DNA of 64,000 nucleotides from a plasmid, in NCBI RefSeq assembly GCF_988243305.1, contig NZ_OZ547137.1, one strand, 5' to 3'. Positions 60,001 through 63,000 of the stretch are shown piece after piece. Positions within the stretch are counted from its first letter, which is position 1, and the number at the start of each line of letters is the position of its first letter. Position numbers: made by a program.

Positions 60001-63000
60001 GGGTTCGGCGGAGACTGGCAGGTGCGCCAGCAGCTGCCTGTCGGAGTCGGGCCTGACGACCGGATGCCGCCAGGCAGCCGGGAGCCGAAGGTGCGCCCGG
60101 CAGACAGGACAACACTGCAGTAGTCAGAATCAGAGCGGCAGGAAAAAGAAGAGCAGTAGCAGTAGCAGTAGCAGTAGCAGTAGCAGGAACAACAACATCA
60201 TCAGTAACAGACAAATGACAGGTCTGAAAAGACAGAAGCCCCCATCAGAACGTCCGCGTAATGAAAGGGGCGGCGCGTGAGCGCGGCCCCTTTCAGCGCC
60301 ACCGGCGCGCGGTCTTTTCCCTGCGCGGGCAGACGGGCATTTATCCTCCCGCCAGCCCTGTGTCATCAGGCACGCAGACGAATAATCATCGTCGGGACAT
60401 CGGTATAAGCAAACGTGCCGCGCGGCAGCTCCTCGCGGACGTCAGAAAACGGTAACAGCTTCTCCTGCTGGCGCGGCCCGTTCAGACAGACGGCAACCAG
60501 CACGCCACCCGGACGCAACAGGGAAAAAGCCCGCAGGATATGCCGGATATCCTGCCCGTGACTGAACGGCGGATTCATGATAACCCGGCTGTAATACTGC
60601 ACCGGCTGCCATTCCATGAAGTCGCCACACTGAACCCTGACACCGTTAAAATTTTCCCGCAGATACCGGACCAGCCCGCTGTTAATCTCCACCGCATCAC
60701 ACATGGCCTCCGGCGCGGTATCCCGAATCGCCCGCAGTATGGCCCCGGTGCCGGCAGAGGGTTCCAGAATGTGATCACGGTTGCTGATTTCCGCCAGCGT
60801 CACCAGGCGATCACAGACCGGGGCAGGAGTCACAAAAAGCTGAGATTCAGCCCGGATTTCAGCAACCGGCGCGGCGTTATCCAGCCTTGCACGCATCAGC
60901 CGGATACGTTCTCTTAACTGACTGTGCATGTCATTATCTCCGTCATCCCCCGGGGATTTCCCGGGGGGATATACCTTATTTCTGTGGGATTTCCGTGATT
61001 TTCATGTCGGTAATATACACATTCACCAGGCGGAAATTATTGTCCATTGTGCGGCGGTAGCGGTATGCCCCGTGGTCTTCTGTCTCTGCCACACTGCGCA
61101 CGGCCTTACAGTCCCGGGGCAGGGCGGCCCACTGCGCCTTTGTCATTTCCCGGAAACCTTCCCCCGGATAGTTGACTACCGGCGGACGCTTCGCGGCCTG
61201 ACTGGCGACGGCAGCCTCTTCTGCCGATGGTGCTTTGTAGTCCGTGATGCGATCGGGCGTCACTTTCATCGTGCCGCTGTACCCGAGAAAACTGTAATTC
61301 GGCGTTGTGACTGAACTCACCGCCCCGTTGCTTTTGTTCACGCGGATGATGGTCAGCCACTCGCCCCGGCTGAAAACCTGTCCGCCCGGCTCAAAATCCT
61401 GTGTCCGGGTAACCACGCCGCCGCTTTCGTCCAGCATGGCACGCTCATAGATCAGGCGGTTCTGATAGTGGTTAACCCAGCGTTGCTGATGCTGAATCTG
61501 CCGTTCATGACAGCGGATCGCAATTTCGCGGGCCTGCTCCGTGGTGATGATGTCATCATCCAGGGCCGACCATAACGATCGACTTCCTTCATACTGGCTT
61601 TTTTCTGCCGGGCGCGGATACGTATCCAGCGGGAAACAGGCGCTGATATGGTCATGACTGCTGATGAGTTTTGCCATATTCAGATCCAGCGATTCAGCCC
61701 GCCACATCGTCAGATATTTCTGCGACTGCGCGATGGTCTTTTCAGCCTTGCGCAAATCAGCTTCGATTTTTTTGATACGACGCCAGCGAACGTCCGGGCG
61801 TTCTTTATACTTCGCGTGAAGCAGTGCCGACCGCGCCCGCTCCTCCCAGTATTCCGCACGTTCAAAGAGCATCACGGCACGTTTCATGCCGTTTTCAATA
61901 CGCTGCGCATCACGACGGGCGCGGCGTTCGCTGTGATGCCCCACAAGAATGGGCTGACCGGGCGGGATCATCGCGGCCAGTCTTTCCACTTCATCAAGTG
62001 CCTGTGCGGATTCACTGGCCCGCTTTCCGCTGTATCCGGTAAACCGCTCCGCCCGTGCTTCCTGACGTTCAGCGAGCGTGCTGTCTTCATCCTCAATCTC
62101 TCCGGCAAGTGAGAGGAGCACGTCTTCCCGGCCCGGTGTCCAGGCTGGCGCGACAAACAGCGCCTGTTTGGGTGCCCAGCGAAAACCGGCATCATGCACT
62201 TTTTTATACGTCTCCGGGTCAAGACGTGACGCGGCATACAGGCGCAGTTTGTTGTCATCCGGTGAGTAGGTCGCGCGGTACATCTGCACAGGGCTGGCGG
62301 CTTCCGGGGCGGTCATGGTGATTGCTGCTAATGTCATAAAATGTTCTCCTTCCGTCTGTTGCCGCCCCTCGCGGGGCGGCTCACCTCATCAGTTAAAAGC
62401 GCGTTTCAGTTCGAGTGTGCGGAGCACCTGCCCGAAGGCCGTGTTTTTCATGGCGGGGATGTGTACACCACGCCCCCGGTGAAAACTCCGGGCTATGTGT
62501 CGCCCGAAGGCTTTCAGCACGGGGTCAATTTCCGGCGCGGGGATGTCTTCGCGTCTGAAACGGGGATGACGGCGGGGCTTTACAGCCGCTGCGGAAGGTG
62601 AAACAATGCTTACAGTCATAAATGGATTCCTTATGACAGTTTGGTAACAGTGCCTTAAAGACTGGTTGCACAGTCTCTTCGGCGTGGATTAAGCAGGTCC
62701 CTGACCTGCTTTTTTCATATCTGCGTCTGACGTTCTCCGGTGTATTCCTCCTTCTGTTCCTGCGTTCTCATTACCTGCCAGCAGGATGCTGACAGAACAC
62801 ATAAATGCGTATTGCCGGAGCCTGAAATAAATCCTGATTTTTAAAGAACATCACCCGTTGAGTTTCGGGAGCCGCGGTTTTGACGTTTCGCGGGAACCTG
62901 CTGCTGTATTCCCTGTGGTATGAACTTCACCCGTTTGAGAACCTTCGCCGCAAGGGGCATCACTGCCACGGCCTGACGCACCTGTCCTGGGCAGAACGCA

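Follow-up and report, generated by a model that had tools for sequence, protein, structure and literature searches.

Among the closest described counterparts of the operon reported here are the leading operons of the F plasmid, ygeA-ygeB and ssb-yfjA-yfjB-psiB-psiA (Couturier et al., 2023; PMC9849209). Frpo1 and Frpo2 of F provide the experimental basis for transcription from single-stranded DNA and for early expression in transconjugants, and deletion of Frpo2 or of ssb produced no measurable change in transfer frequency (PMC9849209), which indicates that leading-region functions can be dispensable in laboratory matings. M.EcoGIX and M.BceJIII are single-strand-specific plasmid methyltransferases of pESBL and pBCA072, respectively, and M.EcoGIX, silent in established cells, is a beta-class DPPY enzyme; the type is marked by ssDNA-specific methylation at degenerate (SAY) sites, by an association with DNA polymerase I and by protection that depends on oriT orientation (Fomenkov et al., 2020; PMC7736820). 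The DarB protein of phage P1, which is delivered as a virion protein and contains an LPD36-methylase-helicase module, protects P1 DNA from type I restriction (Iyer et al., 2017; PMC5512222).

We analysed a 64,000-nucleotide stretch (hereafter, the window) of the plasmid contig NZ_OZ547137.1 (assembly GCF_988243305.1). A first-pass annotation had placed three genes at 60366-62619, and the limits in a mechanically generated ORF list agree exactly. This region is 100% identical to the E. coli plasmid pNORD58_1 (IncFIA/FIB, MOBF). The open reading frames, all from the ORF list, are as follows.

62619..62389, minus strand: ydaB, 76 aa, first gene of the operon
62337..60976, minus strand: ydbA, 453 aa, DUF3560 protein
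60929..60366, minus strand: ydcA, 187 aa, predicted catalytic subunit, with NPPF encoded at 60564-60575
60130..60366, minus strand: 78-aa ORF, overlapping the ydcA stop with its start (ATGA)

The first three are real genes, all under purifying selection, and they form one operon. Pairwise comparisons with pKpQIL-type and Raoultella orthologues, in which dS was about 1 or more, gave dN/dS values of 0.11-0.18 for ydaB, 0.07-0.11 for ydbA and 0.20-0.34 for ydcA. The exact sequence of each protein is present on at least 1000 public contigs, the trio is carried by more than 5000 PLSDB plasmids, and public records annotate the products as hypothetical, DUF3560 and class I SAM methyltransferase proteins. 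Gaps of 51 nt (ydaB-ydbA) and 46 nt (ydbA-ydcA) separate the genes, and each contains a hairpin.

62361..62380, minus strand: intercistronic GC hairpin between ydaB and ydbA, GCCGCCCC-GCGA-GGGGCGGC, read from the sequence
60945..60970, minus strand: hairpin in the ydbA-ydcA intercistronic gap, where the gene is split, with pairing kept between lineages

The first hairpin is identical in three diverged lineages despite a dS of about 1 in the flanking genes. The sequence of the second varies by lineage while its pairing is retained, reading ATCCCCC...GGGGGAT in the window plasmid and CTCCCCGGCA...TGCCGGGGAG in Klebsiella and Raoultella plasmids. Terminator-like sites on the sense strand within the coding regions (7, vs 3.8±1.9 expected) were regarded as chance matches. 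It is doubtful that the 78-aa ORF is a gene or a member of the operon: it contains an (AGCAGT)x5.8 tandem repeat at 60152-60186 and is annotated as hypothetical in NZ_CP139842, and no CDS is annotated at its position in the pKpQIL-type or Raoultella plasmids.

The position of the operon relative to the origin of transfer, and the elements at its 5' end, bear on when it would be expressed. The relevant features are listed below.

52101..52119, plus strand: R100-type oriT nic sequence, GCGTAGTGTGTGGTGCTTT, a single match with 0.03 expected by chance
62837..63285, minus strand: Frpo-type single-strand promoter, the third copy ('repeat C'), from homology to F Frpo and fold
62614..62714, plus strand: probable AS-pc01 cis-antisense sRNA, Rfam RF02875, matching the full model (1-99)

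The pattern used in the nic search was what we take to be the consensus of the F and R100 oriT sequences, and the match sits between traM and an SLT gene. Its location on the plus strand identifies that strand as the T-strand, which extends from about 52.1 kb in the direction of 64 kb. The T-strand is the template for the minus-strand genes ydaB, ydbA and ydcA, as it is for ssb and psiB. The three genes lie 8–11 kb from nic, and their strand is the one for which the entering T-strand can serve as template; both nic position and gene orientation support the leading-region location and early entry proposed in the first-pass annotation.

That annotation also correctly placed the cluster downstream of repeat C, one of three copies of an approximately 450-nt repeat in the window, and did not recognise the repeat as an Frpo promoter. 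Repeat C lies 217 nt upstream of the ydaB start codon and shares 92.7% identity with F Frpo2 over 438 nt (82.8% with F Frpo1). Its T-strand folds into a long imperfect hairpin at -130 kcal/mol (z = -10.9). Homology and predicted folding identify repeat C as a third Frpo single-strand promoter, and its plus-strand hairpin is predicted to direct transcription of the minus-strand genes downstream. The promoter element, its orientation and its location relative to oriT are those of the F leading operons. F itself carries just two copies of Frpo, and neither ydbA nor ydcA appears in its annotated leading region; the third copy, together with the operon behind it, belongs instead to R100/pKpQIL/pAA-type plasmids.

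A further difference from F concerns the 5' end of ydaB, over which lies a probable copy of a known antisense sRNA, AS-pc01, that the first-pass annotation overlooked. In the literature searched, no antisense sRNA overlapping the first gene is described for the F operons. The match takes in the start codon of ydaB with its Shine-Dalgarno sequence and some 95 nt of 5' UTR. Its score in the window (72 bits, E 2.5e-11) is 7 bits under the Rfam gathering score of 79, while the orthologous sites of pKpQIL-type (94.8 bits) and Raoultella (79.3 bits) plasmids score at or above it. The putative sRNA has a sigma70-like promoter (TTTACA-17-AACAAT, extended TG) at 62579-62607 and an intrinsic terminator consisting of a hairpin at 62691-62711 followed by T6, the stem of which has maintained its pairing through compensatory changes. 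A published qPCR primer (PMC12370729) matches the window sequence.

The cluster was already on record: both of its larger-gene families have been listed among those enriched in leading regions (Samuel et al., 2024; PMC11541004, Supplementary Table 1). DUF3560/YdbA is family 28 (1913 members), and family 26 (1957 members), a methyltransferase, is almost certainly the YdcA family; the two occupy adjacent leading-region positions in nearly equal numbers. New here are the Frpo identity of repeat C, the ydbA/ydcA split and the overlap of AS-pc01 with the ydaB start. Literature searches on ydbA/ydcA, DUF3560, plasmid methylomes and pEC958 returned no functional, methylation, binding or conjugation data on the proteins.

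We turn to the protein encoded by ydcA, in which the first-pass annotation had read an NPPF motif typical of N6-adenine methyltransferases. The motif is confirmed at YdcA residues 119-122 (window 60575-60564), and motifs and fold together point to a complete methyltransferase of the adenine-N6 type. The SAM-binding fold, whose completeness had been set as the check on that reading, is present as a seven-stranded Rossmann-like fold. SAM motifs I-III and the catalytic motif IV, (N/D)PP(F/Y/W), occur in the gamma-type order X-I-II-III-IV, in a region colinear with residues 22-122 of M.TaqI, and G60, G62, E81, F104 and N119-P120-P121-F122 are invariant across 30 family members. The 187-aa protein ends right at the last beta-strand of the Rossmann fold, with no target-recognition domain, and a Pfam scan revealed no further domain. 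We thus predict that YdcA is a class I SAM-dependent N6-adenine methyltransferase core of the DarB/mad2/M.TaqI type.

The relationships on which this prediction rests differ from YdcA in what surrounds the shared core. M.TaqI is the best PDB sequence match (highest identity 29%), and many type II DNA methyltransferases are also among the profile matches; YdcA differs from M.TaqI and other gamma-class enzymes, and from type I HsdM, in having neither a target-recognition domain nor a cognate endonuclease. No cognate endonuclease gene lies nearby, the neighbours being ydaB, ydbA, the doubtful 78-aa ORF, Frpo copies and ssb; the ydcA methyltransferase is an orphan, lacking the adjacent endonuclease gene of a restriction-modification system. 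The best-scoring named family for YdcA is mad2 of PADLOC-DB (E 2.2e-20, YdcA residues 28-185), where the YdcA-like domain occupies positions 269-443 of a 492-position profile within the multi-gene host defence system MADS, none of whose other genes is near ydcA. An hhalign comparison of the YdcA-family profile with P1 DarB aligned DarB residues 90-277 (probability 97.2%, E 4.5e-11), and the two share LEPSAGTG and LPxGTFxxxGT signatures; the DarB methyltransferase domain (PMC5512222) is homologous to YdcA. Only the methyltransferase part of the YdbA-YdcA family aligns to the first 400 residues of DarB. Ahead of it, unlike in DarB, stands an unrelated module of about 440 aa with DUF3560, and neither YdbA, YdcA nor the 81 relatives scanned with Pfam contain LPD36 or an SF2/SNF2 helicase.

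The first-pass annotation had found no motif recognisable by eye in the 453-aa and 76-aa proteins. Profile searches do assign a domain to the former, DUF3560 (Pfam accession PF12083; E 1.1e-36, residues 89-206), and a weak one to the latter (see below). YdbA is arginine-rich, with invariant residues R91, R95, R98, R167, R186 and R187 and a GHHS loop, and profile and fold searches yielded no solved structural relative and no recognisable DNA-binding fold; it has no PADLOC match and is unrelated to HsdS or the C-terminal domain of M.TaqI. The names 'hydrolase' and 'HD hydrolase' on some YdbA records lack profile or fold support, and an LPD36-like region in YdbA showed no match when compared with the DarB N-terminus.

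A comparison with relatives bears on the part that YdbA plays. Of 695 relatives at E<=1e-30, most are 630-700 aa long, and among the 101 of at least 560 aa, 95 have the YdbA-like part followed by a YdcA-like domain on its C-terminal side, in one chain of about 670 aa. The consensus of an 81-sequence alignment continues directly from the YdbA module into the YdcA motifs, and a Pfam scan of these relatives found DUF3560 in all 81 and MTS in 46-68. The fused genes are single ORFs on their contigs. A second pair, split independently and with its two genes overlapping by 4 nt, lies in a metagenomic element together with a Lar restriction-alleviation homologue. Two 582-aa 'fusions' (P0005 and P0006) that are 99% identical to the window proteins are singletons on short contigs, probably sequencing or frameshift artefacts, and were excluded from the fusion counts.

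By these sequence relationships, ydbA and ydcA are two halves of one enzyme, encoded as a split gene, a point that escaped the first-pass annotation. Its suggestion of a functional partnership for the 453-aa protein has strong support, since in most relatives the two are one protein. YdbA corresponds to the N-terminal non-catalytic module of a split methyltransferase, and the conserved arginines, together with the fusion, lead us to infer that it is a nucleic-acid-binding or targeting subunit.

An unlikely alternative, though the best-placed of those we considered, is that YdbA and YdcA are separate early effectors that have no more than their delivery in common, YdbA having an anti-defence or establishment activity of its own and YdcA methylating alone. 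Fusion in the 'polyvalent' proteins of mobile elements can reflect co-delivery rather than joint function (PMC5512222), and this rationale could extend to the present family: some relatives reach 965-1453 aa as giant multi-domain proteins, one of them with LPD29; YdcA-type domains also occur within giant phage polyvalent proteins that lack DUF3560; and YdbA is nearly absent from phage genomes while the methyltransferase domain appears in 233 phage records. Against this stands the nearly obligatory pairing in fixed order seen in the long relatives. The split forms, moreover, stay adjacent, overlapping or 46 nt apart, the two families are nearly equal in count and adjacent in leading regions, and YdcA is without a DNA-recognition module of its own.

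The place of YdaB is less certain. The protein is very basic (pI 11.9) and full length in at least 5000 plasmids, and its homologues form 233 clusters, all from Enterobacterales. One UniRef record calls it YdaB and some others CCDC81 HU domain 1, and its weak match to Pfam accession PF14908 (E 7e-4) suggests that it is possibly an HU-like nucleic-acid binder. YdaB had been proposed as a partner along with the 453-aa protein. As an operon member it is conserved only in plasmids of Enterobacterales, and no homologue lies beside the fused or split methyltransferase genes examined in other elements, for which reason its partnership with YdbA/YdcA is weakly supported.

Among described systems, M.EcoGIX offers a close parallel to the role we propose. 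Both it and YdcA, as predicted, are orphan adenine methyltransferases encoded in a leading region downstream of an Frpo/ssi-type promoter, on the strand expressed from entering DNA, and the silence of M.EcoGIX in established cells is likewise predicted for YdbA-YdcA. The proposed role common to the two is promiscuous protective methylation at entry. They differ in that M.EcoGIX consists of one polypeptide and is reported to act together with DNA polymerase I, whereas YdcA is split from (or, in relatives, fused with) a DUF3560 module, and in that YdcA carries NPPF in the gamma-type motif order. PF01555, which we take to be the Pfam family expected for beta-class enzymes, is absent among the Pfam hits of YdcA (the scan covered the YdcA side of this comparison). 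Membership of YdcA in the M.EcoGIX family was rejected because the two belong to different methyltransferase classes; on motif grounds, M.EcoGIX is a functional analogue of YdbA-YdcA, not a family member.

The reading that we favour, and consider somewhat more probable than not, is that ydaB-ydbA-ydcA is an early ('zygotically induced') operon encoding a two-subunit, low-specificity adenine DNA methyltransferase with a self-limiting, anti-restriction function. The T-strand enters 5' to 3' from nic at about 52.11 kb, and Frpo copy C upstream would drive the operon. YdbA and YdcA would assemble into a heteromeric enzyme in which the arginine-rich YdbA provides nucleic-acid binding in trans, in place of a sequence-reading domain. 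This enzyme would methylate, with relaxed specificity, adenines of the plasmid DNA as it arrives, whether still single-stranded or newly duplexed, and so pre-empt the restriction enzymes of the recipient, functionally like M.EcoGIX (pESBL) and DarB (P1). As with DarB, the enzyme would serve a mobile element as its DNA enters, though made de novo from single-stranded DNA. Expression would limit itself, since the Frpo hairpin would be lost upon complementary-strand synthesis and AS-pc01, transcribable only from the new strand, would then block translation of ydaB and probably of the whole operon. YdaB could be a nucleic-acid binder or a translated leader, the least certain step of the scheme. 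Points that weigh against this reading are that YdbA shows no recognisable DNA-binding fold, that fusions in polyvalent proteins can arise from co-delivery, that Frpo2 and ssb could be deleted from F with no measurable effect on transfer, and that the AS-pc01 score in the window is below the gathering score.

A DNA adenine methyltransferase could also serve another purpose, either as an epigenetic mark of the plasmid that controls replication, transfer genes or strand choice in mismatch repair, or against methylation-sensitive defences other than restriction. Orphan methyltransferases can act as regulators, the effect of Dcm on RIP113 transfer did not depend on restriction (PMC11602122), and CRISPR spacers of K. 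pneumoniae are directed at ydbA, ydcA and Frpo in pKpQIL-type plasmids, which places these loci under immune pressure of other kinds. We nevertheless give this possibility little credence: the predicted transient, entry-only expression suits one-off protection better than maintenance of a mark, the lack of a target-recognition domain argues against site-specific regulation, and the homologous DarB is an anti-restriction factor. That the real substrate is instead host or plasmid RNA (rRNA, tRNA or plasmid transcripts), with effects on translation or RNA fate in the new host, seems equally improbable, given that in sequence YdcA is most strongly related to DNA methyltransferases (mad2, M.TaqI and the DarB domain), that the Erm and KsgA scores of YdcA all fall far below the family cut-offs, and that the family context is always one of mobile-element establishment or anti-restriction modules.

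Beyond the favoured reading of protective methylation at entry, we tentatively raise a more far-reaching idea, which is possible but on balance doubtful. DUF3560 may be an unrecognised nucleic-acid-loading module that replaces the target-recognition domain, in which case YdbA-YdcA and its single-chain relatives (found in the mobile-element contexts examined) would make up a new class of partner-dependent, sequence-independent adenine methyltransferases. They would coat the single strand on entry, and the m6A that they deposit would 'cloak' it, with an antisense RNA gated by strand conversion as the off-switch.

Sequenced plasmids of the IncF type that carry the operon number in the thousands and come from E. 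coli, Klebsiella (pKpQIL type), Salmonella and Shigella; such plasmids are the chief carriers of ESBL and carbapenemase genes. If it does protect against restriction, it would partly explain the ease with which these plasmids cross strain barriers. It would also provide a first function for DUF3560, a widespread mobile-element domain, and a second way, structurally unrelated to M.EcoGIX, to methylate DNA during entry. The arrangement of Frpo and AS-pc01 also yields a simple and testable model of how a gene expressed only at entry may be silenced in cells where the plasmid has become established.

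The three minus-strand open reading frames of the leading-region cluster, each with a plausible Shine-Dalgarno sequence, have exactly the limits proposed in the first-pass annotation, and the NPPF motif that it reported in the last gene occupies residues 119-122 of the 187-aa protein. The genes are separated by 51 nt (ydaB-ydbA) and 46 nt (ydbA-ydcA):

62619..62389, minus strand: ydaB, 76 aa
62361-62380, minus strand: GC-rich hairpin in the ydaB-ydbA gap
62337..60976, minus strand: ydbA, 453 aa
60945-60970, minus strand: GC-rich hairpin in the ydbA-ydcA gap
60929..60366, minus strand: ydcA, 187 aa

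The orthologues in a pKpQIL-type Klebsiella plasmid and in a Raoultella plasmid give dN/dS values of 0.11-0.18 for ydaB, 0.07-0.11 for ydbA and 0.20-0.34 for ydcA, at a dS of roughly 1 or higher. Each exact protein occurs on at least 1000 public contigs, and all three are real genes. The first hairpin is sequence-identical in three lineages with a dS of about 1 in the flanking genes, and the second varies in sequence between lineages with its pairing kept; possible roles are mRNA stabilisation and control of the expression ratio of the subunits, or they may form on single-stranded DNA. In PLSDB, at least 5000 plasmids match the 2.7-kb operon stretch; most are conjugative and most come from Escherichia and Klebsiella (100% identity in pNORD58_1, IncFIA/FIB, MOBF). 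Public annotation reads 'hypothetical protein', 'DUF3560 domain-containing protein' and 'class I SAM-dependent methyltransferase'; the names ydbA and ydcA come from older plasmid annotations (pS88) and YdaB from one UniRef record. Three 78-kb E. coli plasmids in PLSDB match the full query at 98.3% identity with no methyltransferase CDS listed beneath; because PLSDB leaves out pseudogenes, this lineage may have inactivated ydcA and retained ydbA.

The surrounding leading region contains the following features:

52101-52119, plus strand: R100-type nic sequence GCGTAGTGTGTGGTGCTTT, single occurrence in the window
54187-54636: repeat copy A, ~450 nt
55173-55349, minus strand: sok antitoxin RNA (RF01794, full-length match, 88.9 bits, above the gathering score)
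56660-58624, minus strand: ParB-like leading-region gene of the yubM/ycjA type, read as two ORFs (112 and 525 aa)
59509-59958: repeat copy B, ~450 nt
60152-60186: tandem repeat (AGCAGT)x5.8, directly upstream of copy B in the direction of transcription
62837-63285: repeat copy C, ~450 nt
63398-63422: tandem repeat (AAG)x8.3, directly upstream of copy C in the direction of transcription
63455-64000: IS66-family element, beginning right after the (AAG)n repeat

Genes traM, traJ and traY lie just under 52 kb and an SLT gene just over. The site at 52101-52119 fits the R100-type nic consensus, and its orientation makes the plus strand the transferred strand (T-strand), which enters 5' to 3' from ~52.11 kb towards 64 kb and is the template for the minus-strand hok/sok, psiA, psiB, ssb and ydaB-ydbA-ydcA genes. 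With the cluster 8.3-10.5 kb from nic, the earlier proposal that it enters the recipient early is correct. The sok match adjoins the annotated Hok toxin gene, between copies A and B. The ParB-like gene encodes ~650 aa in F, and the PLSDB gene table of the identical plasmid has no CDS at its position; it is probably a pseudogene through a frameshift or stop codon. An ORF at 63835..63455 resembles an IS66 transposase C-terminus, and the pNORD58_1 annotation has tnpB and tnpA farther along, beyond the IS66 start. Because this element begins there, the leading region is cut off at ~63455, and the block of klcA, ardA and a beta-class methylase that F and pKpQIL-type plasmids carry is not adjacent to the operon here.

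Repeat C is, as judged from its sequence, a copy of the F plasmid single-strand promoter Frpo, with 92.7% identity to Frpo2 over 438 nt and 82.8% to Frpo1. In silico, its single-stranded T-strand forms a long hairpin with imperfect pairing (-130 kcal/mol, z = -10.9). The early expression burst of downstream genes in new F transconjugants requires Frpo1 and Frpo2 (PMC9849209). F has only these two copies, which are the ones that the F experiments cover, and an annotated leading region without ydbA and ydcA. The (AGCAGT)n repeat forms the poly-Leu tail of a 78-aa ORF (60366..60130), doubtful as a gene, which overlaps the ydcA stop codon; both tandem repeats might be linked to the 'structural replication barrier' reported for the F leading region (bioRxiv 10.64898/2026.01.09.698686). 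Near-identical spurious ORFs occur in several frames of the Frpo repeats, for example at 59513-59653 and 62841-62981 ('MRQAVAVMPLAAKVLK...'). Among the 'uncharacterised' leading-region families that Samuel et al. 2024 list, the largest, family 1 (YdaB/YdfB/YgdA; 4739 members), might consist in part of such ORFs. The name YdaB is used ambiguously.

When the 453-aa YdbA was searched against 1.84 billion cluster representatives, 3900 relatives were recovered (695 at E<=1e-30), and those at 43-57% identity are mostly 630-700 aa long, with query residues 20-451 aligned to residues 3-440. Of 101 relatives that are 560 aa or longer, 95 have a YdcA-like domain, detected with the 187-aa query, at about residues 470-660. 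In the consensus of 81 aligned sequences, the YdbA module is followed by a Pro-rich linker and then by '...QLFPTP...LEPSAGTG...AVEIN...DFL...MNPPF...LKPGG...LPxGTF'; in Pfam scans all 81 have DUF3560 and 46-68 a methyltransferase domain. On their contigs, which belong to integrative or phage-like elements, the fused genes read as single ORFs, with RadC, resolvase, integrase, KilA-N/ANT or DnaB genes as neighbours. Another, independent split pair (456 aa and 198 aa, 4-nt overlap) lies in a metagenomic element that also encodes a Lar restriction-alleviation homologue. In the alignment, the N-terminal helix of YdcA falls on the helix conserved in the fusion linker, which places the split point in the linker. 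This classic 'Rosetta stone' pattern provides good support for ydbA and ydcA as one split enzyme whose halves are predicted to act together. YdbA and YdcA might also be independent effectors, which we consider rather unlikely.

All adenine-N6 methyltransferase motifs are present in YdcA and invariant across the family. The confident AlphaFold2 model (pLDDT 90.5) has the seven strands of a class I fold and stops at the last of them, and YdcA therefore lacks a target-recognition domain. The best solved relative by sequence is M.TaqI (3.5e-6 with a single sequence, 2.6e-10 with a profile). Among named families, mad2 of the MADS defence system scores best (2.2e-20), ahead of type II DNA methyltransferases. 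The YdcA-family profile matches the methyltransferase domain of DarB, an anti-restriction protein of phage P1 (PMC5512222), with 97% probability, and YdcA-type domains also occur inside giant phage polyvalent proteins. We conclude that YdcA belongs to the DarB/mad2/M.TaqI lineage and is probably a competent adenine-N6 enzyme. Matches to Erm and KsgA fall far under the family cut-offs; DNA is the more likely substrate, with RNA as an unlikely alternative.

The YdbA model (pLDDT 92.8, pTM 0.80) comprises an N-terminal alpha/beta domain (20-83), a long helical bundle including DUF3560 (88-304), a five-stranded small barrel (320-360) and a C-terminal alpha/beta domain. It has no structural resemblance to PDB entries past generic helical hairpins, and there is no sequence or profile match either. 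Its 49 invariant positions include 14 Arg/Lys and 12 aromatic/His residues, among them those of an invariant GQPILVGHHS loop; for the DUF3560 core, the pI is 10.2. From the invariant basic and aromatic residues, the pI and the fusion, we infer that YdbA binds nucleic acid and replaces the missing recognition domain.

The nearest functional precedent for YdcA is M.EcoGIX of pESBL, an orphan methyltransferase expressed from Frpo that acts on SAY sites of single strands and protects the incoming plasmid (PMC7736820). Because M.EcoGIX is a single-chain, beta-class DPPY enzyme, YdcA is its analogue and not its relative. By descent, YdcA groups with the DarB-type methyltransferase domain but lacks DarB's LPD36 and helicase partners. 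Samuel et al. 2024 found both families enriched in leading regions, at adjacent median positions and in near-equal counts, and labelled YdbA 'Uncharacterized; DUF3560; Methyltransferase domain protein'. The literature searched contained no prior recognition of a split two-subunit enzyme or its DarB/mad2 link, and no mention of a third Frpo copy as operon promoter or of AS-pc01 as antisense partner.

YdaB is very basic (pI 11.9). At least 5000 plasmids have it conserved over its full length, and its homologues are confined to Enterobacterales; none was found beside the fused or split methyltransferase genes examined elsewhere. It has a weak, recurrent match to the HU-like domain PF14908 (E 7e-4). 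On the opposite strand lie the signals of an antisense RNA:

62579-62607, plus strand: sigma70-like promoter
62691-62711, plus strand: intrinsic terminator with T6

The ~100 nt that they enclose match the full model of Rfam RF02875, AS-pc01 ('Antisense to pHK01_035'), at 72 bits, 7 below the gathering score; the same site scores 94.8 bits in the Klebsiella plasmid and 79.3 bits in the Raoultella plasmid. The terminator stem has compensatory changes, and a CUCC in the first loop is complementary to the ydaB Shine-Dalgarno sequence. AS-pc01 has been detected by RT-qPCR (PMC12370729) with a primer that matches the window sequence. Being copied from the complement of the T-strand, AS-pc01 needs a double-stranded plasmid. 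It would become transcribable exactly when strand conversion removes the Frpo hairpin, and the operon would thus be shut off two-fold after establishment, by Frpo loss and by AS-pc01.

Host CRISPR immunity targets this operon. Published chromosomal spacers of K. pneumoniae (PMC6965323) match the pKpQIL-type Klebsiella plasmid exactly at 6811-6842, 7291-7322, 8043-8074, 8367-8398 and 8706-8737; the targets are ydbA (two), the NPPF-coding region of ydcA, a site immediately after ydcA, and the Frpo repeat. Against the E. coli-type window these spacers have 5-6 differences or no match within 6 mismatches.

The first-pass observation of this cluster is confirmed, and its anti-restriction or anti-defence interpretation is supported in part. 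The anatomy of operon, Frpo copy, split enzyme and antisense RNA is well supported. A role other than restriction evasion has a small chance of being correct. Our best inference, held with moderate confidence, is that the operon would methylate adenines of the plasmid DNA at low specificity at the time of entry, as an anti-restriction function.
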